64,000 nucleotides of DNA from a virus (IMGVR_UViG_3300032319_000936:64001-128000); one strand, 5' to 3'. Positions 17,471 to 56,373 are shown, counted from the stretch's first letter. Numbers and translations: made by a program. The notes: generated by a model not told the origin, from the sequence alone.

Positions 17471-17653
17471 TTATTGACTAAAATATTTGCTATCTTTGGT
17501 TAAATTTATTTTACCTTTCTTGTAATCATTTAGTTTAAATCTTAAGAGGGCACCGAATTCGTAATTGTTTGGAGTTTCTCTTTCCATCTCAATTAAGTGC
17601 TTAATAAACCTGTCACTCTTTGATTCGAATAATCTTCTTATAAAATTCATCAT
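17471..17653 (-). CDS. hypothetical protein
   Basis: 60-aa ORF, PNNYEFG. Confidence 0.55.
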   Translation of the reverse strand: MMNFIRRLFESKSDRFIKHLIEMERETPNNYEFGALLRFKLNDYKKGKINLTKDSKYFSQ

Positions 17654-19545
17654 AATTTAGCCTGCTTTAAAATACCCTTCTCCTTATTGAAACAGTGTAA
17701 AGAGGTAATGTGCATAGTGTACCACCCCGGTTTCACGTCCTTCCATGTTTCATAATCTTTTTCTTTGAGCCTATCTAAAAGCCAATATAATTTCATACAG
17801 GCTAAATAGATATCGTCTCTGAAGTGTCTGATATAATCACAGGATCTAATATAGTAGACTATATGCATATGGTCGCCTCTTCTAATGAAGTGATAACCTA
17901 TCGTACAATTGTGAACAGTGCAGTTTGATATATTATAGCTATTATCCTCCTCAACCTGCAGATTATAAACATCAATGCCATCAGGATTACTTATTTCATC
18001 TTTTGTATTTACACTAAATAAAACTCTATTGGAATTAAACCATTTATGCCGGTAGATTTCCCTTTGATTTTCAACAATCTCAATATTAAAGAATTCAGAA
18101 GATAATCTTCCACCCTGGGAAAATACCAACTTATATGTTGGATAATTTGGTTTAATTACTCCATTTAACATTTTATTAAAGTATGGCTTCCTCAGTTTAA
18201 TTTTTTGCAATGAATTATAGATACCATTTCTAAAACACATAGTTCTTAATCCCATAATGATGGAAGGTGATACCGAGGTACATTCTATATTTTTCTGATT
18301 AGGCTCGAATGAGCCATCACCCCTAGTAAATCCAATAAGTGTTTGTAACTGAGATTTACTTGGTAATTTTAGAAATTCGATAGGTATAATTTTATTATAT
18401 GAACCGCTACCAAACATATCATATAGGGTTTTTGCAAAATCAACACTATGAAAATATATTCTGATTGATTGTTCATCGTTTATTCTGATTGGTCTTTTAA
18501 TCTTTACCTCCCTATTGAATTCATTTCTAATTATATTAGCGATATCATCGATGTAACCATTTCTTTCATCCTTAGTTGACATGTTAAATCTAACTGTGCA
18601 TGGCTTTTTATTTCCATATCTTTTGTCAAAAATTATATCCCCTTCGGCTAAATAGTAACCAAAGAGCCTCATAAGATCATCGGAATATTTGGATTCTGTA
18701 TTATCATTTATAAAAGAATGAACCACATAATCACCAGGATTTATATCCTCAGCATTTATCCATTCCTCGATCCATTCAAACCTACTATCACTGGGTAAAA
18801 ATCCTTTATTTTTAACTACCAAGAAAGGATGATCCCTAGTTGTCCTTATCTCCTGGTTTGTGTTTGAAGTTTTTATAGATATTATCTGATCGGTATATCT
18901 AGATTGGTATACTTTTTCTATATTACGGAATCTTCCATTATGTGTTATTACCTGATCCCCCACAGATGCATCTTTAATCTTTCTATAGCCAGTTGATGTT
19001 TGTATCTCTATTTCACCGGTAAAGCAGGGCACTCGCTCTCCGTGTGCTGACCCGGTATCCTCAGGAAACCAAATAGGAAGAAATGCTTGTCTTGTAAAAG
19101 GCTCTCTCACCATCAGATCTACTACATCATCGAAATCCCCGTAATCGTATCTTATTCCACCCATTATTTCGTTAGAGCTATCTGATGTAAATTTTGGCCA
19201 AATTCTCTCCGGATACGTGTGGCTAAATTTTTCACTACCGCCAAATTGTTCATTGGACTTCTGGGCAAAGGGCCACCTAACATGGGATGGAGGTGGATTT
19301 AGTGGTTCACCGCTAACTCTTTCTTCGAAGTGCTCTTTTGCCCACGGTAGATTTGGTCTCACCTCTTCTATAAGCACATCTTCAGTTTCGGGAATCACAA
19401 ATCTCAATGAATGTCCAAGCAATTCAAACATATCATCTGGCGAAGGTATACCCTGCCATCTCTCGGTCTTTACGACGTATCCGTGGTTAATAAGACACTC
19501 TTTAGTGTACTTTATTGCTGCTGAAGGGTGTTGAAAGGCTCTCAT
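17650..19545 (-). CDS. thymidylate-synthase-family dNMP methyl/hydroxymethyltransferase (dCMP-type signature), intein-containing
   Basis: Spliced VP|CTIGYHF catalytic Cys, RSCDYIRHFRDD, ITSLH. Confidence 0.85.
   Translation of the reverse strand: MRAFQHPSAAIKYTKECLINHGYVVKTERWQGIPSPDDMFELLGHSLRFVIPETEDVLIEEVRPNLPWAKEHFEERVSGEPLNPPPSHVRWPFAQKSNEQFGGSEKFSHTYPERIWPKFTSDSSNEIMGGIRYDYGDFDDVVDLMVREPFTRQAFLPIWFPEDTGSAHGERVPCFTGEIEIQTSTGYRKIKDASVGDQVITHNGRFRNIEKVYQSRYTDQIISIKTSNTNQEIRTTRDHPFLVVKNKGFLPSDSRFEWIEEWINAEDINPGDYVVHSFINDNTESKYSDDLMRLFGYYLAEGDIIFDKRYGNKKPCTVRFNMSTKDERNGYIDDIANIIRNEFNREVKIKRPIRINDEQSIRIYFHSVDFAKTLYDMFGSGSYNKIIPIEFLKLPSKSQLQTLIGFTRGDGSFEPNQKNIECTSVSPSIIMGLRTMCFRNGIYNSLQKIKLRKPYFNKMLNGVIKPNYPTYKLVFSQGGRLSSEFFNIEIVENQREIYRHKWFNSNRVLFSVNTKDEISNPDGIDVYNLQVEEDNSYNISNCTVHNCTIGYHFIRRGDHMHIVYYIRSCDYIRHFRDDIYLACMKLYWLLDRLKEKDYETWKDVKPGWYTMHITSLHCFNKEKGILKQAKL
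17908..19026 (-). mobile_element. cis intein with LAGLIDADG homing endonuclease (373 aa)
   Basis: Starts CFTGE, TRDH block B, FGYYLAEG and LIGFTRGDG motifs, ends VHN followed by Cys+1. Confidence 0.92.
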
Positions 19546-24093: not shown

Positions 24094-24118
24094 AAAAAGG
24101 GAGCAAATTGCTCCCTTT
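24094..24118 (-). terminator. terminator after tmRNA
   Basis: AAAGGGAGC aattt GCTCCCTTTTT on the minus strand. Confidence 0.7.
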
Positions 24119-24120
24119 AG

Positions 24121-24484
24121 TGGAGATGCCGGGGGTCGAACCCGGGTCCGTCTCAACAAGCGCAGAGGACTCATTCACAGGCTTAGTATCGGTTTAACAG
24201 AACTCCGTACAAACTGTTTCACTGTATTTTTTGAGCTGACTTCAGCGTTAGTCAGTGAATTGTCCGGAGGTCCGGAGTCTTCGTGGCTTGCGGTCTACCG
24301 CGTCTTGGTACTTTCTGTTCCTAGGTCGTACCGACCCGTAGCTTAGGCTGCAAGAGCAAATTCAGCTGACCCTACGTAAGAGTTGTCATTTGTCGTTTTG
24401 ATAGGTATTTAAAGTGTTTCCATCTAACACTGCCTGCATCATCTCAAAGAACTTCCGTTGCACGTCAATGCCATTAACATCCCC
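24121..24484 (-). ncRNA. ssrA: tmRNA
   Basis: 5' GGGGATG pairs with 3' CATCTCC-A (G3:U70), T-arm CCGGGTTCGACCCCCGG, tag frame 24393-24343 TNDNSYVGSAEFALAA*. Confidence 0.95.
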
Positions 24485-28849: not shown

Positions 28850-30526
28850 TTAAAAAAGAGGATTTATCATGAATAGGTTTGGACTTATAGGATTGTGTCC
28901 CATAGCTTCAATGAACCTGTTGATTGGGTCCAAAATCGTCTTGGTGAATTGCTGATCGTAATCGATCTGCGGCGCAAATTCATATGGGAAATTACCTTGA
29001 ACGAATGCAAACACGTTATTTTCAGCTGCAGATTTGGTTTTAACAAAGAAGAAATTAACTTTATCCGAACTTCTAATCATAGCATACTTGTCCTTAAATT
29101 TTGAATTATTCAGTAGATAGTTATGGTATGCACTTGCTCTAACGTGGATAGGACATCCCTTTCCAACTTCCAGAGCTGAGACATCATTCAAAACGAACTT
29201 CTCGTAGTTGTTAATCTGTATAGCTGCAGAGATATTCTGAGACTCCTGAGCTTTAAAGTCTTTCTTAATAGATTTAAGCTCTTGTACAAATTCCTTGATG
29301 CTGAACTTCTTACCTTTAGAGAAGATAAACTTTGTAAGATAGCTTAGTTTCTCCCTAACGAAAGGAGGTGTTCCACCCTTGATCATTTCAACACCGGTTA
29401 TCTTTAAATGGGAAAGAGGCTCCATATGGACTCCGTCTTCATACACAAGATTAGTAACGTACTTTTTCTTACCTAGGAATATACCATTTATAGCAAGTGT
29501 CTCTAACTCGAAATCCTGTTTATTTTCAGTACCCCATTTCTTTGAATAAATCTCGAAGCAGTTTTTTAGGTATCCCTTAAATCTTTTCTCGTTTATCTGT
29601 AGGATAAGCTCTTTCGGATCTCCCTGCCAGTCACAGGAGTTTACAACCTCTTCAAAAGCTACGTAATTGGAATTGTGAACCAATATATTATTAGCAAAGA
29701 ATGTCTGATTATCATATCCCTCTTCGTCTATTTCGAGATCGTATACATATTCACTATCGAATTCTCCTATCTGATCGCAAGATTTTATTCTTTCAAATTC
29801 GTATTTGTAACCTATTTCTTTATGTATTATATCGAGGTCTATGGACAAAATCCGATCCGTCTTGACATTTATTTCAGAAGGCTTTATATGGATCTTTTTA
29901 GAATCTCTAAATACTGTTATCGAATGATCATTCGTTACTATAACCTCTTTACCTGAATCTGTAACTATTCTCCACCTGGGTTTACTTACCTTGTGTCTAA
30001 TTATTCTTTTAATACCGGAGAATGTCACATCCTTCTTGTAATTCAATGCTGAAATCCCATATGGCTCGATAATTTCATTTCCCCTTTCGTCTACATTTAC
30101 ATCATAGGTCTTTGAGTACAATCTAAAAAGATCACCAAATTCAATTTCTTCTATATTATCTCCAGATTTCAATATTATTTTGGATGCTTGATCACAGCTG
30201 TCAGTGTCAGAATAAATTACGAGGGGCTTATGGACCTTTTTAACTTGGGTTATTCCTAATTGCTCATGAAGCTCGGTATCTAGATGCCAATGTTCTTGAA
30301 AATATCTATTTACAATCTTCTCAGAGAACTTAATCATATCCTGACCCTGTAAAGTAACGGCCTCAGCAACTTCAGTATTAAAGCAAACGAAGAAAGTATT
30401 GGCTAGAGCTCCGTAGATTGAATTCATCGTTAGCTTAACAGCCTGCTCCTCGTTCTTTAACTCGTTCTTTAAAGACGTAAGTTCCGTTATCTTATTCTCT
30501 ATCTCTTTGATTTCCGTCTCTGTCAT
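28850..30526 (-). CDS. polB: DNA polymerase family B, C-terminal half (motifs B and C, thumb), with mini-intein
   Basis: KLTMNSIYG, YSDTD|SNY, KKKY. Confidence 0.92.
   Translation of the reverse strand: MTETEIKEIENKITELTSLKNELKNEEQAVKLTMNSIYGALANTFFVCFNTEVAEAVTLQGQDMIKFSEKIVNRYFQEHWHLDTELHEQLGITQVKKVHKPLVIYSDTDSCDQASKIILKSGDNIEEIEFGDLFRLYSKTYDVNVDERGNEIIEPYGISALNYKKDVTFSGIKRIIRHKVSKPRWRIVTDSGKEVIVTNDHSITVFRDSKKIHIKPSEINVKTDRILSIDLDIIHKEIGYKYEFERIKSCDQIGEFDSEYVYDLEIDEEGYDNQTFFANNILVHNSNYVAFEEVVNSCDWQGDPKELILQINEKRFKGYLKNCFEIYSKKWGTENKQDFELETLAINGIFLGKKKYVTNLVYEDGVHMEPLSHLKITGVEMIKGGTPPFVREKLSYLTKFIFSKGKKFSIKEFVQELKSIKKDFKAQESQNISAAIQINNYEKFVLNDVSALEVGKGCPIHVRASAYHNYLLNNSKFKDKYAMIRSSDKVNFFFVKTKSAAENNVFAFVQGNFPYEFAPQIDYDQQFTKTILDPINRFIEAMGHNPISPNLFMINPLF
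29672..30199 (-). mobile_element. cis mini-intein (176 aa) in polB motif C
   Basis: SCDQASKI start, VTNDHS block B, VYDLEI...ILVHN followed by Ser+1; no endonuclease. Confidence 0.9.
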
Positions 30527-38320: not shown

Positions 38321-39019
38321 TTAAAATCCGGATAGCCAATTTTTTCTTGCCTGCGAAGATTTACCAAAAGCCATTTCCAGACTAGATTTTGATTCAGGAT
38401 CAGGTGATATCTGTAAAATTCTTCTGTTTCTCATAACAAAATCCCAATCGTCCAAAGATAATGAACCTAATCCCTTAAGGTATCTTACATTTTTAAGATC
38501 CGAAGAAGATGCTCTCTTGAATTCATCTAATGAGAAGTAATATTTTTTAACCCTATCCCCAGAACTAACTAGAGGCGTTTCCAATATATGTAGCCTCCCC
38601 TGTCCTACTATCCACGGGAACCAAGTATAGAAAAGATTAACCAGCAAGCTAGTAATGTGGGATCCATCAGGATCCTGGTCTGTTGATATGACTATGTTTT
38701 TAAATGGTCCATCGAAACTCTTCTCCTCGGGGTCAAGATTCAATATTTGCATTAGCTCCAATATCTCCCTATTTGAAGATAGATCCCCGAGTGATCTTGC
38801 ATTCTTGATCTTTCCCTTTAATGCATATACACCGTCTTTCTTAGGATCCCTCTTTTGCAAAAGTGAACCCATAGCAGAATTATGAGACACCACACCATTA
38901 GCTAAAACAAAGCTTTCGTCCTCTTCCACAGTAAGATCTATACAATTATAAACACCCGAATTTTCTATTTTCTCTATTTCCACTATCTGGAAAAAATTTT
39001 CATGTTGTTCAGTTAACAT
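38321..39019 (-). CDS. type IIA topoisomerase B subunit, C-terminal Toprim part, preceded by split intein C-half
   Basis: DLTVEEDESFVLANGVVSHN|SAMG, ALKGK, TDQDPDGSHI, YLKGLGS. Confidence 0.92.
   Translation of the reverse strand: MLTEQHENFFQIVEIEKIENSGVYNCIDLTVEEDESFVLANGVVSHNSAMGSLLQKRDPKKDGVYALKGKIKNARSLGDLSSNREILELMQILNLDPEEKSFDGPFKNIVISTDQDPDGSHITSLLVNLFYTWFPWIVGQGRLHILETPLVSSGDRVKKYYFSLDEFKRASSSDLKNVRYLKGLGSLSLDDWDFVMRNRRILQISPDPESKSSLEMAFGKSSQARKNWLSGF
38879..39019 (-). mobile_element. split intein C-half (47 aa), topoisomerase B
   Basis: Blocks F/G ending SHN, Ser+1. Confidence 0.9.
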
Positions 39020-39129: not shown

Positions 39130-40869
39130 TTAAATATGATCAAAAACACATATCAAATCTCCATTTTTTATTTCAGAAGCTTTTCTCATTATAAAAGAGC
39201 TTTCTTTTTGGAGATAAATGCAATATTTGTGATCGTCACTGCATTTATAAAACGAGCCATCTTCTAGGATTAACCCGTTATGATATTTTTCATCACCAGT
39301 TTTAAATTTATCGGTCACCTCTAAATTTCCAATAAAATTTCCCAGACTAGATTTAACAATACAGTGTTTTTCTGCGTCCATATCCGAGACAGACAGAAAT
39401 GAAAAAACTGAAGATATTTTATCAAAGACATAATATCTGTGAGCCTTCGATTGGACTAATTGTGTTCCATCTTTTAGTGTTACAGTAAAACACTCCTTTA
39501 ATTTTCTTTGCTTATTTACGATCTTTCTGAATCTATTATTGTGTGTTATTACATCATCACCAAGCAAAACTTCCTTCATGGGTAGATTCAAAAGCTCGCC
39601 GTCTCTCCAAACATTTATTTTTTCATCCTCGTGTATACATAGCCCCTCTACTATAAATAGATTTTCCGCTTTAGAAGCTGTTGGAGGGAAATACTTATGA
39701 GAAAATTTTATCTTTACATTCTTTTTTTCCCTTCTAATCTTCTTTATCTCAGCATCTTTTCTTCTCTCATCGACAGATTTCTTTATTGATTTAAAGGTTT
39801 CTGTTCTGTAGAATTTCTGTAAGCCAGCTTCGAAGCTTCTAACGATGGTTGGCTCAACCTCTTCTCTCTTACTTACAAATTTAGTTTTATTCTGATCGCC
39901 AAATCTTACTAAACCGGGAGATAAATTAAGAATCAGTAGATGATCATAGAAGTGATGACCTAGGCTATCCTCAAGTTCACCATTGATTCTATCCATAACT
40001 ATCTTCTGATGAATACCCGTGCATATTGCAGAGTTCACAAAAGCAAAAGAAGAAGTAGATTCACTCTTTGGCCATATTAGAAGTTCCCCTATTTGACACT
40101 TGTATGAGAATCCCGGTGATAAAGCTGAGTTAATCAAGGTCTTGTTACCGTCCCATATAAACTCTATGTTAATGCTCTCGGTCTTTTTTTCGGTTTCTAA
40201 TACCCTCTTTTTCAGGACCAGTGTGGACCATAGAATATCACGGTCCCATTTATTATTATCGAATATCTTAGGCAGCGGGGAAAAGCTAACCCTTGTTCCG
40301 GTTTCCCTGCTAGAAGACTTCGTCTTTACATCAGGTTTAGATGCTAAAAAATTCTCCCACCTTTGAAAATATGTTTCTTGACTATTTGTTGTCTCTATCT
40401 CAAAGAATGACGACAAAGCGTTAACAAGACTAACTCCCATCCCGTTGGTACCAATTAGCGATTCCTCTATATCATCGTTATCGAAATTAGAACCAGCTCT
40501 TAGCATGGATACTGCGGTCTCAACGTTGGATAGCCCACTCTTTTTGTTCTTTTTAGATCCATTGAGAAATCCGTCACCTGAATCTGTAATGGAGATTGCA
40601 TTGGATTTGGTATCGATCTCGACTGTGATTTTCCTCATCGGAGATTTCATTCTCTTGGCCTCGTCGACGCAATTAGAAAAAACCTCATCGAAAAGTTTGT
40701 ACATACCAACAGAGATTGGTCGGGGTTGTGATTTAATACACTTACCCTCTTCCACTATAGGTACCTGTTCTTCCGACGTTTTTACACTACCAACATATAT
40801 GGTAGGTCTAGCCAAAATGTGTTCAAAGTCACTGAGGACTTGTATTTCTTTACTCGGTTTTGTAGCCAT
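39130..40869 (-). CDS. type IIA topoisomerase B subunit, N-terminal ATPase part, followed by split intein N-half
   Basis: EHILARP, DEVFSNCVDE, GTNGMG, FIVEGL|CIHED. Confidence 0.92.
   Translation of the reverse strand: MATKPSKEIQVLSDFEHILARPTIYVGSVKTSEEQVPIVEEGKCIKSQPRPISVGMYKLFDEVFSNCVDEAKRMKSPMRKITVEIDTKSNAISITDSGDGFLNGSKKNKKSGLSNVETAVSMLRAGSNFDNDDIEESLIGTNGMGVSLVNALSSFFEIETTNSQETYFQRWENFLASKPDVKTKSSSRETGTRVSFSPLPKIFDNNKWDRDILWSTLVLKKRVLETEKKTESINIEFIWDGNKTLINSALSPGFSYKCQIGELLIWPKSESTSSFAFVNSAICTGIHQKIVMDRINGELEDSLGHHFYDHLLILNLSPGLVRFGDQNKTKFVSKREEVEPTIVRSFEAGLQKFYRTETFKSIKKSVDERRKDAEIKKIRREKKNVKIKFSHKYFPPTASKAENLFIVEGLCIHEDEKINVWRDGELLNLPMKEVLLGDDVITHNNRFRKIVNKQRKLKECFTVTLKDGTQLVQSKAHRYYVFDKISSVFSFLSVSDMDAEKHCIVKSSLGNFIGNLEVTDKFKTGDEKYHNGLILEDGSFYKCSDDHKYCIYLQKESSFIMRKASEIKNGDLICVFDHI
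39133..39639 (-). mobile_element. split intein N-half (169 aa), topoisomerase B
   Basis: Cys1 inside the Toprim EGL|SA motif; GDDVITHNNRFR; two block-B-like segments. Confidence 0.88.
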
Positions 40870-44255: not shown

Positions 44256-44896
44256 TATCCTTTATTTTGCTCCTTGGACTTTTGCAAGCCCAAAGCATCA
44301 ACAACATTAGACAAAACCGCTTCCTTCCCTTCGGACGAGTCTATTTTCTTAACTTTCCTGTTTTTAGTGTAAAGCTCTATCAGAGGTAAAGTCTTTTCAA
44401 GGTACTCGTCAAATCTCTTGTTAATAGTTTCAAAACTAGCATCGTCCTTCCTCCCCTCTTCTTTAGCTCTTTTCTGTAATCTAGAGATTGCTTCTTCCCT
44501 CGGTAGGTCTAAGAAAATAGCATGATTTAAGCCAAGCCCTAGTTTTCCTAGCATTTTATCTAGCATCTTAGATTGCTCTATATTCCTAGGAAATCCATCA
44601 AATGCTATATTCTTTTCTAAATCAAGTTCCTTAACCTTTTCATTTAACATCTCTAGCATCTTATCGTCTGGAATCATATTTCCATTTGCTATGATTTCCT
44701 TCAGCTCCTTATCGTCGGAGTTTCTAATTAGATCGCCTGTTGAAATGTGCTGAAAATCATAGTCCTTTACTAGTCCCTTTGCTAGAGTTCCTTTCCCTGA
44801 TCCAGGAGGGCCAAGGAGAACTATTATTTTCCCCTGCTTATCCGGAAGCTCTCTTTCGTTTACAAAATCGGAAAATCTTTTAATACTAGAATTCAT
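44255..44896 (-). CDS. adk: adenylate kinase with N-terminal CTS-like extension
   Basis: GPPGSGKGT, HISTGDLIR, DGFPRN, GRKDD. Confidence 0.92.
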   Translation of the reverse strand: MNSSIKRFSDFVNERELPDKQGKIIVLLGPPGSGKGTLAKGLVKDYDFQHISTGDLIRNSDDKELKEIIANGNMIPDDKMLEMLNEKVKELDLEKNIAFDGFPRNIEQSKMLDKMLGKLGLGLNHAIFLDLPREEAISRLQKRAKEEGRKDDASFETINKRFDEYLEKTLPLIELYTKNRKVKKIDSSEGKEAVLSNVVDALGLQKSKEQNKG

Positions 44897-44917
44897 ACCC
44901 TATTTATCTATTTTTAA

Positions 44918-45694
44918 TTAAGATCCACAAGCAATACATCCATCAGGTCCACCGTCAAGGCTACATACTATATCGGAAGTTAATTTAGCGGCCAAATCAG
45001 CTAGCTCCTGTGAATTGTGAGTGAGTTCCTCAGGTAGCTCCGTTACAACTTTCTTAACTTCGTATTGCGGAACTGTTTCAATAACAGGGGCTTTAACCTC
45101 TTCTGTCTTTTGTGTCTTATATTTAGATAGATCAACACCAAGTCCTGAAAGAGCATCAGCTGCTGATTTAGTTCTCAAATAGTACATACCGGTCTTTAAC
45201 CCGATCTCCCAACTATGGAAGTGAGCAGCTGTCAATTTAGCAGCATTCACTCCCTCAATGAACAAGTTCATAGACTGTGATTGGCAGATAAATCTTCCTC
45301 TGTCTGCTGACATGTCCAATAGATCTTTTTGCTTGATCTCCCATACAGTTTTATAAACCTCCTTAATATCGTCTGGTATGCTAGGAATGTTCTGTACCGA
45401 TCCCTTGTTGATTATAATCATATTCTTCATATCCTCACCCCAGAGGTCCAGATTTATAAGATCTTTCACAAGATGCTTATTGACAACTACAAATTCTCCG
45501 GATAGTGTTCTTCTGGTGTAGATATTAGATGTGAACGGCTCAAATGCCTCATTGTTCCCCATTATCTGAGCTGTGTTGTGTGAAACCATACCGTTTTCCA
45601 ACAAGTATTCGTTAACATCCGGCACTTCAAGATCCCAAGTTGATCTTTCTTGGTCTGCCTTTCTGATTGATTTTATTTTTATCGTCTGTTTCAT
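44918..45694 (-). CDS. nrdA: ribonucleotide reductase alpha, fragment 3 (IntC-2 + C-terminal part)
   Basis: WDLEVPDVNEYLLENGMVSHN|TAQIMGNNEAFEP, ICQSQS, GMYYLR, CIACGS. Confidence 0.93.
   Translation of the reverse strand: MKQTIKIKSIRKADQERSTWDLEVPDVNEYLLENGMVSHNTAQIMGNNEAFEPFTSNIYTRRTLSGEFVVVNKHLVKDLINLDLWGEDMKNMIIINKGSVQNIPSIPDDIKEVYKTVWEIKQKDLLDMSADRGRFICQSQSMNLFIEGVNAAKLTAAHFHSWEIGLKTGMYYLRTKSAADALSGLGVDLSKYKTQKTEEVKAPVIETVPQYEVKKVVTELPEELTHNSQELADLAAKLTSDIVCSLDGGPDGCIACGS
45575..45694 (-). mobile_element. split intein C-half 2 (40 aa), NrdA
   Basis: MKQTIKIKSI...SHN, Thr+1. Confidence 0.9.
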
Positions 45695-45734
45695 ATTTGT
45701 AATTTATTTTATTTTTTGCCAACCAAAATATGAA

Positions 45735-47279
45735 TTATCCCTTGATTATTTCATCATTCTCAGTGAGTTCATCAGCTCTAACCCAAACTTCCTCCCCATT
45801 TCTCTGACAAAGGAATCTGTGGTTGTGAGAGCATGTTACCACGTTACCATCCTCGGTCTCTATTTCAATAACAGGGACTTTGCCATTATAGAATATTTTT
45901 TCACATTCCTTAGTTCCGAATCGTGTCTCAACTTTAACTTTATCGTCAAAGAAAACCCACTGTTGCTGGCCAGATTCTTCTATCGATTTCCAGTCTATAT
46001 TTCTCTCTTCTAATATTTCTATATAGGACTTAACTCCACGATCGGTTCTGATTCTTGATTCAGGCACAAGACAACTGGCTGTAGGCATGGGTGCCAGGAG
46101 TAAAGAGTTTCTAACACCGTGTTTCATAACATCCTTTCTCAATTTACCCCAATCCCATCTCCCTGAAAGATCATCATCATTGAAACCCCACATATTGAAC
46201 TGGAATTCTCCTTTGCTAATCGGTGAGCCCTCAAATGATTCGTATGCACCATTAGCTTTTGCTAGATCTTTAGAAGCTGTGCATGATGCAAAATAGATTG
46301 TCTCAAAAATATCAGAGTTTATCTTTCTGGCTTCTTCCGACGTGAATCCGATACCCATGATAGCATATAAATCTGCCAATCCCTGGATACCTATTCCGAT
46401 TGGTCTGTGCTTCGTATTGGATCTCTTGGTCTCCTCTGTTGGATAGTAGTTAACATCAATAACCTGATTTAGATTAAGTGTTGTCTGATATGCCACCTTA
46501 TAAAGCTCATCGTGATCAACGTCACACTTGCCTCTTATTAACTTCGTTGTTCTAGCGTCGGTCGACTTTAAGAACTTGTTAACTGGAATGGATGCAAGGT
46601 TACAAACAGCTTGTTCCTCCTTAGAAGTAACCTCCATGATCTCGGTACATAAATTAGAACTCTTGATTGTGCCGATATTCTTCTGGTTAGATTTCTTATT
46701 CGCGTGGTCCTTGTATAGGATATAAGGAGTTCCGGTCTCGATTTGTGACTCAATTATCTTCGCCCAGAGATCTCTTGCTTTGAGTGTTTTTCTAGCCTTT
46801 CCAGCTTCCTCAGCAGCAATATAAGCTTGGTCGAAGGCATCTCCGTATAATTCCCAAATCCCTTCCACATCAGATGGAGAGAATAAAGACCATTCGCCAT
46901 TTTCTTTTACTCTCTTCATGAAGAGATCAGGTGTCCAAAGAGCCAAGAAAAGATCACGAGCTCTTCTTTCTTCCTTACCTGTATTCTTTCTAAGATCTAA
47001 GAAATCCTCAATGTCAGCATGCCAAGGCTCCATGTAGATAGCGAAGGATCCTTTTCTGCGGCCGCCCCCGTTATGCACTATTGAGATATCAGTAGAATAA
47101 TTTGGTACATCCTTAACTCTCAGATCATATAGATTAGAATCTGCTATCTCAGCTTTTTTAACTCCCTTTACCCTATTAAATTTTAATTTTTCTAAAGAAA
47201 GGCTAACTGATTCCTCTCTTATTTCCCCATCGATCTCAGGATGATGCAAAAAGACATTTTTAATTTTTCCCATTTTCAT
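45735..47279 (-). CDS. nrdA: ribonucleotide reductase alpha, fragment 2 (IntC-1 + catalytic core + IntN-2)
   Basis: VHN|GGGRRKGS, SNLCTEI, VCNLAS, APMPTAS|CLVPES. Confidence 0.93.
   Translation of the reverse strand: MKMGKIKNVFLHHPEIDGEIREESVSLSLEKLKFNRVKGVKKAEIADSNLYDLRVKDVPNYSTDISIVHNGGGRRKGSFAIYMEPWHADIEDFLDLRKNTGKEERRARDLFLALWTPDLFMKRVKENGEWSLFSPSDVEGIWELYGDAFDQAYIAAEEAGKARKTLKARDLWAKIIESQIETGTPYILYKDHANKKSNQKNIGTIKSSNLCTEIMEVTSKEEQAVCNLASIPVNKFLKSTDARTTKLIRGKCDVDHDELYKVAYQTTLNLNQVIDVNYYPTEETKRSNTKHRPIGIGIQGLADLYAIMGIGFTSEEARKINSDIFETIYFASCTASKDLAKANGAYESFEGSPISKGEFQFNMWGFNDDDLSGRWDWGKLRKDVMKHGVRNSLLLAPMPTASCLVPESRIRTDRGVKSYIEILEERNIDWKSIEESGQQQWVFFDDKVKVETRFGTKECEKIFYNGKVPVIEIETEDGNVVTCSHNHRFLCQRNGEEVWVRADELTENDEIIKG
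45738..46073 (-). mobile_element. split intein N-half 2 (112 aa), NrdA
   Basis: CLVPESRI...TCSHNHRF...RADELTENDEII*. Confidence 0.9.
47070..47279 (-). mobile_element. split intein C-half 1 (70 aa), NrdA, Gly at +1
   Basis: LYDLRVKDVPNYSTDISIVHN followed by GGG. Confidence 0.85.
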
Positions 47280-47280
47280 T

Positions 47281-48174
47281 TTATATTATCTCACTTTTTT
47301 TATTTTTTTCATCCCATATATGAAATTCAAATTTGAATCCCTTAAATACGCAAGACTCTTTTTTAGCTATGTTCTTTTCATAATCCAGTCTTAAACTATA
47401 ATCCGATTTAACTTCTACTATTCTATTTTCTGGAACTATATAGAGGTCAGGATAGTACTCCCTTTCAATCCCCTTAAAAAAATACACAATTGGATCATTC
47501 TCCTCAAATCCTATTTTTAAATCACTTCTTTTGTATTTTTTTAAAAATTCGGGTATAACAAATCTTTCATATCCCTGTACTCTTATCAATTCACCTTCAT
47601 GTGAAATAGTATAGGATTTGTAGGATTGTTCTTTTTTTCTTCTACATATGTTGGAACATGTTTTTCTAAATCCTTTGTTTGTTAATCTTTCTTTAGCTGG
47701 TTTCCCGCAAACTTCGCATTTAGGATGGTCCACCACATCATTCAAAAACATATGGATCATTATCCTTTTATCTGAGAAATTACTGTATCTGTTTTTTAAC
47801 TCCTCAATTAGAATATAATTCTCCATTAGCATCTGTGTAACTGAACCACATTTTTTTTGTTTTTCTAAACTATCCTCAGTAAGTGATTGTTTAAATTTAT
47901 CCAGTGTATCTACAAGAAATTTATCGCTCAATTCTTTATATTCGCCTTTGCTGTTATATTTTTTATAGGATCCTCTAAATTTCTTAAATCCTAATTTATC
48001 TCTAGGTACTTCGTGCAATCCATTCTCATACAAATAGGAAATTTCTTCGTACGGTAACCCATAGAATCCCATCTCTTTAGACCACTCTATGATATTTAAA
48101 GTCTTATCCGGATAATGCGAGGACATGTACGAATATTTTCTGAATTTTCCAGATTTGTCTTCTTCCATAGTCAT
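47281..48174 (-). CDS. free-standing putative homing endonuclease (Zn finger + PD-(D/E)xK) between split-intein halves
   Basis: CEVC...CSNIC; YYPDLY...IVEVKS. Confidence 0.8.
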   Translation of the reverse strand: MTMEEDKSGKFRKYSYMSSHYPDKTLNIIEWSKEMGFYGLPYEEISYLYENGLHEVPRDKLGFKKFRGSYKKYNSKGEYKELSDKFLVDTLDKFKQSLTEDSLEKQKKCGSVTQMLMENYILIEELKNRYSNFSDKRIMIHMFLNDVVDHPKCEVCGKPAKERLTNKGFRKTCSNICRRKKEQSYKSYTISHEGELIRVQGYERFVIPEFLKKYKRSDLKIGFEENDPIVYFFKGIEREYYPDLYIVPENRIVEVKSDYSLRLDYEKNIAKKESCVFKGFKFEFHIWDEKNKKSEII

Positions 48175-48219
48175 TGAATATTTTTAATTTATATATCAGA
48201 CCAGGGCGGAGTTTTTATA

Positions 48220-49407
48220 TTAAAAGCTTAGCAAAATATCCTCGCCGGTAATATTTTTTGCCTCTATCCATTCTGGATTTATGGTTCCAGATTCGAATTT
48301 AATCTCTATATTTTCTATGAGATTTCCACCCTTAATGCATAGAAATAAATGGTCCTCGGTAACTATATTTTTACCACCATCTGTTTCTATTTCGACCATT
48401 ATTTTATCTGATGATCTTGTGACTATCTTTTCTTCAACCAAATGATATTCGCCATCGGAAGAAAGTACTAGATCACCCGCTTCGATCTCTTCTATCTTTT
48501 TATCACCTCCACTAACTCTAATTAGGGTCTCACCAATAAAACACTGATCTACGTACCTCGCAGTCTCATTAAAAACTCTTAGCATCGGTATAATACCATT
48601 GGAATTACCATTTGTACCTTTGATGTAAGATCCTGTGCTTCTAATGTTATGAATAGCCAATCCTATTCCTCCTGCATTCTGTGAAATAACAGCAACATCT
48701 GATAATGTCTTGTAAATACCAGGAATTGAATCATCGTCCATCATTAACAGAAAGCAAGACGAAAGCTGAGGTTTCTTAGTACCGGAATTAAACAGGGTTG
48801 GTGTTGCATGTGTCATCATGTGGTTAGAAAGAAGCTCGTAAGTTTTAATAACGTTCTTCATATCATCTCCCCATATACCAGCGGCAACACGCATATACAT
48901 GTGCTGTGGTGTTTCTGCTACCTCACCGTTTGTTTTTAACAGGTAACTTTTCTCGAGGGTCTTAAAGCCAAAATACTCAAAATCAAAATCTCTCTCGTGA
49001 AGTATTGCACTATCCAGCTTGTTTTTATTCTGCATTACAACCTGATAGGTTTTTTCGCTAATCATCCCAGCTGGCTGATTAGTAACAGGATCTATGTAAT
49101 TATAAAGAGTCTCTATAGTATCTGAGAATTTCTTCTTTGTTGTTTTGTGCAGTCTAGAAACTGCAATTCTAGAAGCTAGAATGGAATGGTCAGGATGCTT
49201 TGGTATCATGGAAGCAGCTGTCTCAGCTGCTAAGGTGTCCAACTCCTGAGTGGATATACCATCATAGATTCCCGCGATTACCTTCTGGGAGATACCCACA
49301 GGGTCAACTAGGTCCTGGTTTAGACCATAGGTCATCTTTCTAATTCTATTAGAAACTTTCTCAAATCTCACTGGTTCTTTAGAACCGTCTCTCTTAATTA
49401 CTTGCAT
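48220..49407 (-). CDS. nrdA: ribonucleotide reductase alpha, fragment 1 (ATP cone + N-terminal part + IntN-1)
   Basis: VIKRDG ATP cone, [18 protein letters not shown]|CFIGET. Confidence 0.93.
48223..48543 (-). mobile_element. split intein N-half 1 (107 aa), NrdA
   Basis: CFIGETLI...VTEDH...[15 protein letters not shown]. Confidence 0.9.
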
Positions 49408-49425
49408 ATTTTATTTAACTTATTT

Positions 49426-50415
49426 TTAGAAATCTGTATCAAACCCAAATGGATCGTCCTCGCTTTTATTCATGATACCCGCTTTCTGATACTCCGAGAC
49501 CCTCTTTTCAAAAAAGTTCGACTTTCCCTGTAATGCTATATTAGCCATGAAATCGAATGGATTTTCAGAATTGTAAACTCTTGAGCAGCCAAGGTCTACT
49601 AATAGTCTATCTGTCACAAATTCAAGATACTGTATCATTAATTCAGAGTTCATACCAATTAGTCTAACTGGAAGTGACTCTGTTATGAATTCCTTCTCAA
49701 TTTCCAAAGCGCTGGTGAGAATTTCTTTTATTCTATCTGGAGAAACCTTATTGATGATGTGATTGTTGTGCAAATGTACAGCAAAATCGCAATGCATTCC
49801 CTCGTCTCTTGAGATTAGCTCATTAGAAAACGAAAGGCCTGGCATTAACCCTCTTTTCTTTAGCCAGAAAATAGAGCAGAATGAACCAGAGAAGAAAATT
49901 CCTTCCACAGCTGCAAAAGCAATAAGTCTCTCCTGGAAATGTGGTGAATCGATCCACTTTAGAGCCCATTCTGCTTTTTTCTTAACAGCTGGGATTGTAT
50001 CAATAGCTTTGAAAAGCATATTTTTTTCTTCCTGCTCCTGAATATAGGTATCAATCAACAAGGAGTAAGTCTCGCTATGGATATTTTCCATCATGATCTG
50101 AAACCCATAGAAGAACTTGGCTTCAGAATATTGAACCTCTTTAACGAAGTTCTCCGCTAGATTTTCATTCACTATACCATCTGAGGCAGCGAAGAAAGCT
50201 AAGATATTCTTAACGAAATATTTCTCATCCTCATTAAGAACGTTTCTCCAGTCGTTTAAATCCTGAGATAGGTCTATCTCTTCCGCAGTCCATATGCAAG
50301 CCTGCTGCTTTTTATAAAGATCCCATAAATCTGGATGCTCTATAGGGAATATAACGAACCTATTTGGGTTCTCCTGGAGGATCTTTTCCCCATAGGAATA
50401 TACTGAATTTTCCAT
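49426..50415 (-). CDS. nrdB: ribonucleotide reductase class Ia beta subunit
   Basis: [44 protein letters not shown]. Confidence 0.95.
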
Positions 50416-50976: not shown

Positions 50977-52395
50977 CTATTTAGAGGAATTTTCTGATTC
51001 TTTTTTTATTAATTTTTCGAGTCTATCGATTTCGATCTGTAGAGCTAACATTTTGTCCTTTGTAGCTCTTCTTTTTGAGTAAAGATCGCTAACTATGCCC
51101 CTTAATATAGGCTCTTCATCTTCCCCTCCGAAATATGCTCCGGATGAAGTTTTAACCCAACTGTCCTTCGGAGTTAATATGCTCTTACCCTTATAGACCT
51201 CCGGGGATATACCCCATTGAACAATTGTATTTGGATACAGGGAGGCAAAGTCATAACAAGCTATCCATTCGTGCAATCCCGCTATTGGCTCCTTAACATA
51301 TCCACCTGCAAATTTAACTGCCTGCTCTTCTTTCCTCTCGTTAACAAATACCTGTTTTCTTTCTAGGAACTTTCTGAGCATCATGCTCTCTGTTGACCAA
51401 ACTGGGGAAAGTGCTCTATTGATTTCTACGCCTGTTACCAATGCTATCTTAAAGAAAGTCTGTAAGGTCTTTAGCTTCTGATCTATATAATGAACAAGAG
51501 CACAATCGACTGCGTTATAGTAGATAAAGTCTTCAAAATTAGATTGATATAGATCACGGAGAGTTCCGTTATATGAGATCTTCTTGAGTCCTATAGCTTT
51601 TTCAGCAACATAATCCAATCTATTGCTTTCCTTGATTTTAATAACTCTATCCCATTTCTTATAGATATCCAAATAATCGACCATTAGTATGTGTTGGGGC
51701 AACTGATTCTTTCCTATTAGAGTTCGGGATGGCGATATCATCTTGGGGTCTATTCCTAGCTTCTTTGCACGGTTTATCAGATATGGCCAGTCGTACCCTA
51801 GCCAGTTCCATCCTGTAATAAATGGCATCTTCGAGCCTATGTCCTTAAAGAAAGTATACAGCATATCATACTCGCTTTCAAATTGCTTGTATTTAAAGCT
51901 CCACTCGTCACCGGTTTTTTCGAAGTAGCTATTCAGCTTATTATGAATGGAAACTTGTTGCTCCTGAGTTAGAGGGTCTAGTCCTAAAACAATAAGCTTA
52001 CACTTATCCGTTGCAATACCGATTGATAAAACCCTATTCTTTGTGTTCTCAGTATCTAACGCATCAGCCATCTCATCCGTGATCTCAACCTCGATATCGA
52101 GAAAGTATTTCTTTGGTGTTTGATACTCCCAAAGCGGTGATGTTATGTTGCGATCTGACTCTTCCAGCATTTGAGCCATTCTATACTTATCGTATCTCTC
52201 AGAAGGAGCCTTTTTAACTGGTGCACCTGTCCAGTCTTTCCATTCTGGGTCTTTTTTTCTGTCATTAGGATAACACTTTGACCAAACAAATCTCTCCTCT
52301 TCAGGAACAGGAATGTGCAAAAAAACTAGATCACCCTCATCACTGAAATGAGAAACGTTCAAATACGTTCCTTTATTTTCTATGTCTACTATCAT
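50977..52395 (-). CDS. polB: DNA polymerase family B, N-terminal half (3'-5' exonuclease + motif A)
   Basis: FLDIE, TGWNWLGYDWPY, YNAVD, GGYVKEP, YDFASLYPN; ends in the fingers helix. Confidence 0.92.
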   Translation of the reverse strand: MIVDIENKGTYLNVSHFSDEGDLVFLHIPVPEEERFVWSKCYPNDRKKDPEWKDWTGAPVKKAPSERYDKYRMAQMLEESDRNITSPLWEYQTPKKYFLDIEVEITDEMADALDTENTKNRVLSIGIATDKCKLIVLGLDPLTQEQQVSIHNKLNSYFEKTGDEWSFKYKQFESEYDMLYTFFKDIGSKMPFITGWNWLGYDWPYLINRAKKLGIDPKMISPSRTLIGKNQLPQHILMVDYLDIYKKWDRVIKIKESNRLDYVAEKAIGLKKISYNGTLRDLYQSNFEDFIYYNAVDCALVHYIDQKLKTLQTFFKIALVTGVEINRALSPVWSTESMMLRKFLERKQVFVNERKEEQAVKFAGGYVKEPIAGLHEWIACYDFASLYPNTIVQWGISPEVYKGKSILTPKDSWVKTSSGAYFGGEDEEPILRGIVSDLYSKRRATKDKMLALQIEIDRLEKLIKKESENSSK

Positions 52396-54070: not shown

Positions 54071-55372
54071 TTATCCCTTAACCTCCTCAAACTCAACCTC
54101 TTCAGCTTCCGTGCTTGCAGAGCTAGTGGTTTCTCCAGCTTCGCCGGGGTTAGCTTGCTCCTGAGCATAAACTTTAGTGGAGATTTCTTGGAGTGCCTCG
54201 ACTAGATCCTTGGTGCTAGATTCCATCTTTTCAACATCCTCACCTTTTATGGTCTCCTTAGCGGACTCTATCATAGAATTAATCTTAGCTCTTTCCTCCT
54301 CAGATGTCTTTTCCTCAAAGTCTTTAACCATTTTTTCAGCTTGGAAAATTAAGCCATCCAACTCATTCTTAACCTGGGATAGCTTAAGTCTTTCTTTATC
54401 TGCTTTCTCGTTAGCTAAAGCGTCGTCTTTCATCTTTTTGATTTCATCCTCTGATAGCTTATTACCAGCTTCAATCTTGATGTTCTGCTCTTTACCTGTT
54501 CCCTTGTCCTTAGCAGAAACACTAATGATACCGTTAGCATCAATATCAAAGGTAACTTCAATCTGAGGAACGCCTCTTGGAGCAGGAGGGACATCAGTTA
54601 GCATGAATCTTCCTAGAGTCTTGTTATCTGAAGCCATGGGTCTTTCACCCTGTAAAACATGGATTTCCACATTTGCCTGGTTATCAACAGCAGTAGAGAA
54701 TGACTCGCTTTTTCTAATAGGAATAGTTGAGTTAGATTCAATCAATTTGGTGAATACACCTCCCATTGTTTCAATACCTAAAGAAAGCGGAGTAACATCA
54801 AGCAAAAGAACGTCTGTGATTTCTCCTTTTAAAACTGCTCCCTGAACTGCTGCCCCAATAGCAACAACCTCATCGGGATTCACGCTCTTATTTGGCTTCT
54901 TACCAAATAGCTTTTCTACTTCCTCTTGAACCTTAGGAATTCTTGTTGATCCACCAACCAATAGAATCTCATCTATTTCAGAAACTTTAAGTTTGGAATC
55001 TTTGATAGCTTTTCTACAAGGGGCAAGTGTCTTCTGAATTAAATCGTCAATCATTTGCTCAAATTTAGCTCTTGAAAGTTTCCCTACAAAGTGCTTAGGT
55101 CCATCTGAAAGAGCGCTTAGATAAGGTAGGTTAATTTCTGTTTCTGATGAGTTCGATAATTCTATTTTCGCCTTCTCAGCAGCTTCTCTAATACGTTGAT
55201 AAGCCATTGGGTCCTTAGAGGCATCTATTCCAGTTTGAGACTTGAACTCATCCACGATCCAATCAATAATCTTCTCATCGAAGTTGTCACCACCAAGATG
55301 TGTATCACCGTTAGTTGAAAGAACCTCAAATACACCGGAGCCTATCTCCAGGATCGATACGTCAAATGTACC
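54071..55372 (-). CDS. dnaK: chaperone DnaK, exon 2
   Basis: [32 protein letters not shown]; joins exon 1 to give 627 aa. Confidence 0.95.

Positions 55373-56373
<1,001 letters not shown>

Follow-up and report, generated by a model that had tools for sequence, protein, structure and literature searches.

A phage ribonucleotide reductase large subunit encoded in three genes that carry the halves of two predicted split inteins, one of them followed by glycine

So-called fractured genes, broken at a split intein and accompanied by a free-standing homing endonuclease gene, were described by Dassa, London, Stoddard, Schueler-Furman and Pietrokovski (2009; PMC2677866), NrdA-1 to NrdA-7 among them, and the gp41-7 locus in the same work has a split intein without an endonuclease. 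In Aeromonas phage Aeh1 NrdA is split by the insertion of mobE (Crona et al. 2010, PMC3045599), and ligation of several fragments by orthogonal split inteins has been engineered, for example by Pinto et al. 2020 (PMC7090010). A review (PMC4031507) states that in every intein the first residue of the C-extein (+1) is Cys, Ser or Thr, and that only type-A bacterial intein-like (BIL) domains do without (Amitai 2003, Dassa 2004, Aranko 2013, PDB 2LWY); for these, a ligation has been proposed in which the freed amine attacks the thioester. Here we describe a stretch of 64,000 nucleotides from a virus (IMGVR_UViG_3300032319_000936:64001-128000, referred to as the window), in which nrdA, the gene for the alpha subunit of ribonucleotide reductase (RNR), lies in three open reading frames (ORFs) that carry the halves of two predicted split inteins, intein-1 and intein-2. 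Our best explanation as a whole, which we consider probable, is that nrdA is a fractured gene in a myovirus-like phage of about 180 kb and that its pieces are three adjacent genes on the same strand, separately translated.

The window is taken from a virus record of 180,758 bp with genes mostly on the minus strand, and the closest cultured relatives of its RNR are Flavobacteriia phages, Tenacibaculum phage pT24 standing at 59%. The initial annotation of the window had given nrdA as three ORFs whose products regain NrdA once the inteins are removed, and its fragment lengths and junction sequences were borne out by reading of the ORFs and by R1 alignments; absent from it were a 297-residue endonuclease gene between pieces 1 and 2 and the presence of Gly, not Cys, Ser or Thr, after intein-1. 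The parts of the locus are as follows, with IntN and IntC denoting the N- and C-terminal intein halves and a slash marking a junction:

49426..50415, minus strand: nrdB (RNR small subunit), directly upstream of nrdA piece 1; Pfam Ribonuc_red_sm, E 9e-109
48220-49407, minus strand: piece 1 (extein 1 and IntN-1), an ORF of 395 residues; extein ends ...ARYVDQ/CFIGE..., followed by the 107-residue IntN-1
48544..49407, minus strand: extein 1, 288 residues; Pfam ATP-cone, Ribonuc_red_lgN and lgC positions 1-72
48223..48543 (stop codon 48220-48222), minus strand: IntN-1, 107 residues; Hint and Hint_2 matches; Cys1, block B TEDH
47281..48174, minus strand: putative free-standing homing endonuclease in gap 1, 297 residues; Pfam DUF7487, E 3e-15; phrog_3339 'homing endonuclease', E 1e-4
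45735-47279, minus strand: piece 2 (IntC-1, extein 2 and IntN-2), an ORF of 514 residues; junctions ...SIVHN/GGGRRKG and ...MPTAS/CLVPE
47070..47279, minus strand: IntC-1, 70 residues; blocks F and G ...YDL..PNYST.ISIVHN, then Gly
46074..47069, minus strand: extein 2, 332 residues, from Gly289 (loop 2) to ...MPTAS; Pfam lgC positions 69-392; NLCTE and VCNL
45738..46073 (stop codon 45735-45737), minus strand: IntN-2, 112 residues; Pfam Intein_splicing 17-93; Cys1, block B CSHNH
45695..45734, minus strand: spacer of 40 nt between the intein-2 halves; no endonuclease gene here
44918-45694, minus strand: piece 3 (IntC-2 and extein 3), an ORF of 258 residues; junction ...VSHN/TAQIMG
45575..45694, minus strand: IntC-2, 40 residues, with its own ATG; Pfam Intein_splicing 121-155; ends ...NGMVSHN, then Thr
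44921..45574 (stop codon 44918-44920), minus strand: extein 3, 218 residues; Pfam lgC positions 390-523; TAQIMG..., YY and CIAC

At both breaks the upstream ORF ends with intein blocks A and B and the downstream ORF, on the same strand, begins with blocks F and G, as in a fractured gene. Pfam Hint or Intein_splicing matches fall at the C-terminal ends of pieces 1 and 2 and at the N-terminal end of piece 3, and IntC-1 at the N-terminal end of piece 2 was picked up only in the genome-wide search. Each downstream piece opens with its own ATG right at its IntC half, and the ATG of piece 3 is out of frame relative to piece 2 (47279-45694 = 1585 = 3x528+1), as the initial annotation had stated for the 40-nt gap and for both start codons. 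Extein 1, which holds the ATP-cone, the all-alpha domain and the first barrel strands with SSC and whose last residue is Gln288 in specificity loop 2, aligns without a gap to residues 1-288 of human RRM1 (E 1.5e-119), and extein 2 aligns to yeast Rnr1 289-610 (E 1e-121); the exteins therefore abut exactly. After removal of the inteins the class Ia domain order (PF03477, PF00317, PF02867) is correct, with barrel positions 1-72, 69-392 and 390-523, and the catalytic motifs lie on the pieces to which they had been assigned at the outset (SSC, NLCTE, VCNL, YY and the C-terminal CxxC), namely QLSSCF in piece 1, SSNLCTEI and AVCNLAS in piece 2, and GMYYLR and CIACGS in piece 3. By their sequences the three pieces together read as one class Ia RNR alpha (NrdA/R1), and the partner NrdB is encoded next door. 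Break 1 falls at Gln288/Gly289, a site that we take, from established structural work, to be inside loop 2, the loop that carries the RNR specificity signal, and break 2 falls at Ser610/Thr611 (yeast numbering) in the PTAST loop.

The window belongs to a single metagenomic virus record with an estimated completeness of 66%, which speaks for the possibility that the break-up into three ORFs is the product of faulty assembly or sequencing, or that the gene is a pseudogene in decay, with no functional nrdA. Independent assemblies, from NCBI, JGI and Logan contigs, were used as a test of the locus. Three nrdA genes in a row were found on contigs from NCBI GCA_013565695.1, from four Logan runs and from JGI 3300043518. 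The initial annotation had named reads with contiguous ORFs, which would make the split an assembly error, as what would overturn it; instead, identical stops and starts recur in these diverged assemblies. With residues 1-100 of the middle piece as the query, we found about 35 clusters (at a cut-off of 90% identity) of proteins that start with IntC-1, six of which (P0004, P0019, P0020, P0021, P0031 and P0036) are true middle pieces made of IntC-1, extein 2 and IntN-2, and most of the others run directly into extein 3 and are two-piece genes. All RNR catalytic motifs and intein blocks are intact, the intein halves are under purifying selection (see below), and a chimeric assembly was ruled out by the identity profile of the window against the related phage L001, in which no strain switch occurs. 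In light of these data an artefact or a pseudogene is scarcely credible. A megablast search of the locus against 50,697 phage records gave no match.

We give still less credence to a mending of the breaks before or during translation, by endonuclease-bearing self-splicing introns, frameshifting or read-through, which would produce one polypeptide with two cis inteins. Introns often host endonuclease genes, and a group I intron is present elsewhere in the window, in an Hsp70 gene. However, a search for RNA families (Rfam) in 44800-49500 gave no match even at E <= 1, and thus no group I intron, the 40-nt spacer is too short for such an intron, the own ATG of each downstream piece stands directly at its IntC half, and the length of the gaps varies from 34 nt to 1.2 kb among relatives. 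Assembly error, pseudogene and RNA-level repair therefore all appear very unlikely.

With respect to endonuclease genes, the three-gene contigs include some with both gaps empty, some with one or the other occupied and some with both occupied, and the occupancy of the individual loci is as follows:

L183: gap 1, no endonuclease; gap 2, no endonuclease
L184, L185 and L187: gap 1, no endonuclease; gap 2, endonuclease
L186: gap 1, endonuclease; gap 2, endonuclease
L309: gap 1, outside the locus covered; gap 2, endonuclease
Window: gap 1, endonuclease; gap 2, no endonuclease

The gap-1 endonuclease also occurs in L001, L002 and L186 and not in the same gap of L183-L185 and L187, and an ORF of 416-420 residues occupies gap 2 in L309, L003, L184-L187 and L044. 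Relatives of IntN-2 are found in L003, L044 and L183-L187, and IntC-2 of the window is 84% identical to that of L003. Upstream of the break the contig L309 and the window share 96% identity, and the spacer of L309 differs by exactly one insert of 1,187 nt, with an ORF of 418 residues, between identical flanks. The 40-nt spacer is therefore the empty site of that endonuclease gene, the footprint of a gene that was deleted or never acquired. L001 and L002 are phages of about 94% identity that have intein-1 with its endonuclease and lack intein-2, exteins 2 and 3 being uninterrupted in both. Between the window and L001 the background identity is 92-96% on both sides, and the cassette of intein-1 and endonuclease (47030-48530) is 99-100% identical, an excess over the flanks that we read as the signature of recent exchange, or lateral spread, of intein-1 together with its endonuclease. 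We propose that the split state would have arisen by free-standing endonuclease genes invading inteins, and that the turnover of these genes does not depend on the intein halves, which the phage has to retain.

The motif PD...EVK in the C-terminal part of the gap-1 endonuclease suggests, by eye, a PD-(D/E)xK-like enzyme, and a PDB sequence search with this protein gave no usable match. The gap-2 endonucleases matched no Pfam family and may, again in a reading by eye of the motif ..EFNG..WH, resemble Vsr-like enzymes. A second, longer DUF7487 gene is present in the same phage outside the window (G000:C1:172784-173587), with an open frame of 403 residues and an E-value of 1e-58, and is possibly a free-standing relative of the gap-1 endonuclease. 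In Dassa et al. 2009 and in Aeh1 a regulatory hairpin stands before the endonuclease gene; one was looked for here and rejected, the fold being no better than those of shuffled sequences (z = 0.14). With 9 occurrences against an expectation of 8.2, the TATAAATA box shows no enrichment in the window; it precedes the gap-2 endonuclease gene in L309, and before the gap-1 endonuclease gene only a TATAAATT is present. Promoter and terminator scans gave results at chance level, and all that they contribute on co-transcription is that no terminator was predicted between the pieces; the nrdA pieces are probably co-transcribed with nrdB.

The claim of the initial annotation that the pieces are joined by two split inteins holds well for junction 2, with Cys1, SxxH, His-Asn and Thr+1, and is in doubt at junction 1, where the +1 residue is Gly. 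The intein-2 of the window has all canonical class 1 features (C1, CSHNH and SHN/T), and an alignment of intein-2 from eight loci indicates conservation of Cys1, of block-B [ST]xxH, of His-Asn and of Thr+1. Intein-2 thus most likely trans-splices in the canonical way. In one lineage it is absent (P0035), fused in cis as a mini-intein of 155 residues (P0026) or split (P0036), and the fused form still holds the MKTQKIK start of IntC-2, including its start methionine, which suggests that both splitting and re-fusion occur. In cultured Campylobacter phages nrdA ends in an IntN that is 34-38% identical to IntN-2, and in Campylobacter phage CP21 (L310, HE815464.1) this IntN is followed by a hypothetical ORF of 272 residues and then by a short ORF labelled as RNR alpha; the nrdA of CP21 is possibly fractured at the same site as intein-2.

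Intein-1 has the class 1 features C1, TEDH and VHN and lacks the class 1 nucleophile at +1. Its IntN is 32-35% identical to the N-terminal part of LAGLIDADG-containing phage cis inteins of 319-364 residues at the same site, split and cis relatives alike keep C1, T62 and H65 without exception, and the split point is where the cis forms hold the endonuclease domain. IntC-1 is unusually long (70 residues), with a conserved N-terminal extension, FLHHPE.DGEIREES, that is part of the predicted interface. The nearest solved chains to IntN-1 are the gp41-1 intein 6qaz (E 1e-3) and then the BIL domain 2lwy (E 4e-3), both weak matches. The predicted complex of IntN-1 with IntC-1 scored 0.87, against 0.01 for the best of three controls. 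Solved complexes attain this mark in 58 of 80 cases and mismatched pairs in 2 of 110, counts that apply only roughly because alignments of our own were used for the model; the model runs share at least 92% of their contacts and the partners have a pLDDT of at least 72. Purifying selection appears to act on the Cys1, TxxH and HN of intein-1, as the dN/dS ratio (non-synonymous over synonymous substitution rates) of the intein halves is 0.08-0.17 in pairs with unsaturated dS, and dN of IntC-1 is not above that of extein 2. L183 has lost both endonucleases and retains both intein pairs whole, so it would seem that the halves are maintained for the benefit of the host.

The Gly at +1 is invariant in 26 unique split IntC-1 variants and was found by a junction-pattern search in 17 phage cis inteins. 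The alleles that lack the intein have the sequence ...Q-GG(G)KRKG..., and they rule out any shift of the boundary that would provide junction 1 with a nucleophile. In a profile search ...[VI][DN]Q/C was a common RNR intein site, at which a majority clade (about 22 representatives) has Gly+1 and a minority (about 8) has Ser+1. We also scanned bacteria with a degenerate DNA pattern, using one genome per prokaryotic species, and obtained at least 120 loci; at least 119 bacterial nrdA genes (119 of 120 among the loci listed) have cis inteins of about 378 residues that read ...VNQ/C...HN/GGKRKG, spread over at least six phyla and including cultured strains. One further Gly+1 cis intein is that of Undibacterium P0166 (WP_322118607.1), with which a search for related loci in genome contigs gave no match. 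Thiolinea disciformis DSM 14473 (L254) has no PF02867-type (class I/II) RNR large-subunit gene besides the one with the Gly+1 intein, and a closed Azotimanducaceae chromosome likewise has no PF02867 gene besides its intein-bearing nrdA. Since the intein-bearing gene is the sole RNR barrel gene in these two genomes, Gly+1 inteins are compatible with RNR function. Two N-terminal nrdA pieces, P0128 and P0167, have an IntN at the loop-2 site plus a cis intein at ...SS/C, and more heavily interrupted nrdA genes therefore exist.

Canonical transesterification is ruled out at junction 1, because the first C-extein residue is Gly. It follows from the sequence that intein-1 must either mature by a non-canonical route, for example an aminolysis like that of type-A BIL domains, or serve as a docking or cleavage module. 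In the assembly that we propose, IntN-1 would dock with IntC-1 and IntN-2 with IntC-2, bringing the extein pieces into the right order, and junction 2 would be closed by ordinary class-1 protein trans-splicing. At junction 1, Cys1 would form a thioester, the C-terminal Asn would cyclise and free the alpha-amine of Gly289, and this amine would attack the thioester to yield the Gln-Gly bond. Such a BIL-A-like aminolysis is, in our analysis, the likeliest route at junction 1, with about an even prospect of being the right one. The fuller proposal, that split intein-1 makes a Gln-Gly bond in trans without a side-chain nucleophile from the C-extein, beside a canonical and non-cross-reacting intein-2, we hold somewhat short of even.

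Several points weigh against this proposal. The aminolysis of BIL domains is reported to be inefficient, with cleavage products dominating (PMC4031507), and an essential enzyme relying on aminolysis would need a better-tuned version of it. The high score of the modelled IntN-1/IntC-1 complex may reflect a memory of solved split-intein structures and speaks of likeness, not of chemistry. The synonymous sites are saturated in most pairs, so few dN/dS ratios are usable, and, as both IntN halves are acidic (net charge -13 and -8), charge alone would not sort the two pairs.

The main alternative, which we consider possible and less likely than aminolysis, is that no ligation takes place at junction 1 and that intein-1 is a docking module, with or without self-cleavage, so that the enzyme would consist of two chains, extein 1 and the spliced extein 2-extein 3. 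With Gly at +1 the nucleophile that canonical splicing needs in its steps 2 and 4 is missing, the split NrdA of Aeh1 is enzymatically active while held by added interaction tails (PMC3045599), and BIL-A domains mostly cleave (PMC4031507), all of which would fit docking. Docking alone, however, needs neither Cys1, nor the block-B Thr and His, nor the terminal His-Asn, and all of these are invariant down to 32% identity; a permanent nick or a bulky Hint domain in loop 2 seems costly; and the cis versions of about 378 residues sit in the sole RNR of cultured aerobes. The probability that remains belongs to a route at junction 1 other than aminolysis or docking and cleavage.

In the proposed assembly, mutual orthogonality of the two intein pairs is logically required, as the initial annotation had argued, and, like the docking and the chemistry at both junctions, is what we infer from the sequences. 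IntN-1 and IntN-2 are 36% identical at aligned positions and IntC-1 and IntC-2 31%. The graver hazard of mispairing would be intramolecular, as IntC-1 and IntN-2 lie on one middle piece and their cross-reaction would circularise the catalytic core; the topology IntC-extein-IntN is that used in engineered peptide cyclisation. The same genome also has a fractured large subunit of topoisomerase II, in ORFs at 39130-40869 and 38321-39019 (both minus strand), 110 nt apart and with no endonuclease gene between them. The first ends ...FIVEGL/CIHEDE... plus an IntN of 169 residues, and the second starts with an IntC of 47 residues ending ...VVSHN/SAMGS (Ser+1), with the TOPRIM EGxSA motif restored. 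With this third split intein at least three pairs must therefore coexist, and two cis inteins are present in the genome besides it.

The components of this locus, a split intein, a free-standing endonuclease and a class Ia RNR, are of known kinds. The making of one enzyme from three proteins by means of two different split inteins we otherwise found described only for engineered systems, and two split inteins that coexist on one polypeptide, presumably selected against cross-reaction and self-cyclisation, would be a ready source of orthogonal ligation tools. The relatives display a stepwise origin and fixation, with intein-2 absent, in cis, or split with and without its endonuclease, and intein-1 with and without its own. 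One junction has a Gly where every described intein mechanism needs Cys, Ser or Thr, and the conservation of this Gly extends from phages to cultured bacteria with no other RNR. If junction 1 ligates, the main sequence constraint of intein-based protein engineering would be removed; if it does not, an essential enzyme would tolerate a break in its specificity loop. Should the fuller proposal of trans ligation at glycine be correct, the locus would provide two orthogonal ligases paired in nature and tuned by evolution, of which one would be scarless at glycine, and a fourth mechanistic kind of true intein.

Other features of the window include a family B DNA polymerase in two genes about 20 kb apart (50977-52395 and 28850-30526, both minus strand), with no intein halves at the break and with a cis mini-intein in its C-terminal half at ...YSDTDS/C...LVHN/S..., and an ORF of 631 residues (17650-19545, minus strand) with a cis LAGLIDADG intein (...ERVP/CFTGE ... 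CTVHN/CTIGY). The group I intron mentioned above (55406-55795, minus strand; Rfam RF00028, 50.6 bits) lies inside a phage Hsp70/DnaK gene with exons at 55780-56367 (HSP70 positions 1-195) and 54071-55375 (196-598). A full-length transfer-messenger RNA (tmRNA) gene is found at 24118-24484 (minus strand; Rfam RF00023, 65 bits, E 4e-23).

With respect to the known systems, the locus is most like those of Dassa et al. 2009, in which a phage gene for replication or nucleotide metabolism is broken at an intein, with IntN in the upstream and IntC in the downstream gene, and in which an endonuclease gene lies between the halves, its 3' end overlapping or abutting the downstream start, or has disappeared, gp41-7 being the example. 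Each of those loci is broken once, and in their NrdA the intein is placed just before the thiyl-radical Cys, whereas here there are two breaks, in loop 2 and at PTAS/T, with three pieces and a Gly+1 at one intein. The gap-1 endonuclease matches DUF7487, a family not described in PMC2677866, and on our reading is neither GIY-YIG nor Vsr-like. In the literature covered, which took in little of the subscription journals, we found no report of a natural gene with two split inteins or of a Gly+1 intein.

Intein-1 resembles type-A BIL domains in having a Hint domain, an N-terminal Cys and a C-terminal His-Asn with no nucleophile after it. To our knowledge, BIL domains sit in variable, non-essential proteins, have no homing endonuclease, are not naturally split and have no conserved insertion site. 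Intein-1, by contrast, lies at a fixed, conserved position in loop 2 of an essential enzyme. Among its cis relatives are LAGLIDADG-bearing ones, it is accompanied by an endonuclease cassette, and on its removal the exact native sequence is regained. It may thus work like a BIL-A domain without being a member of the BIL family. An intein in the RNR alpha of Cafeteria roenbergensis virus (CroV), marked as from InBase, is included in the supplement of Green, Novikova and Belfort 2018 (PMC5784728); as far as its ends go, which is all of it that was compared, it is like the cis relatives of intein-1 (start CFTPDT..., end ...SSGIVHN), but it is contiguous and not split as here, and the main text of that paper does not discuss a missing +1 nucleophile.

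What the locus shares with Aeh1 is that a mobile endonuclease gene interrupts the class Ia nrdA of a phage, leaving separately translated pieces that have to come together again. Aeh1 does so without an intein, using short insertion-derived tails as interaction domains, and its product consists of two chains with one break, whereas two breaks are present here. The layout also resembles the design of Pinto et al. 2020, in which two split inteins that do not cross-react link a middle fragment, built as IntC-a/extein/IntN-b, to the fragments on either side; that system is man-made, whereas the layout here is natural, recurrent and under selection.

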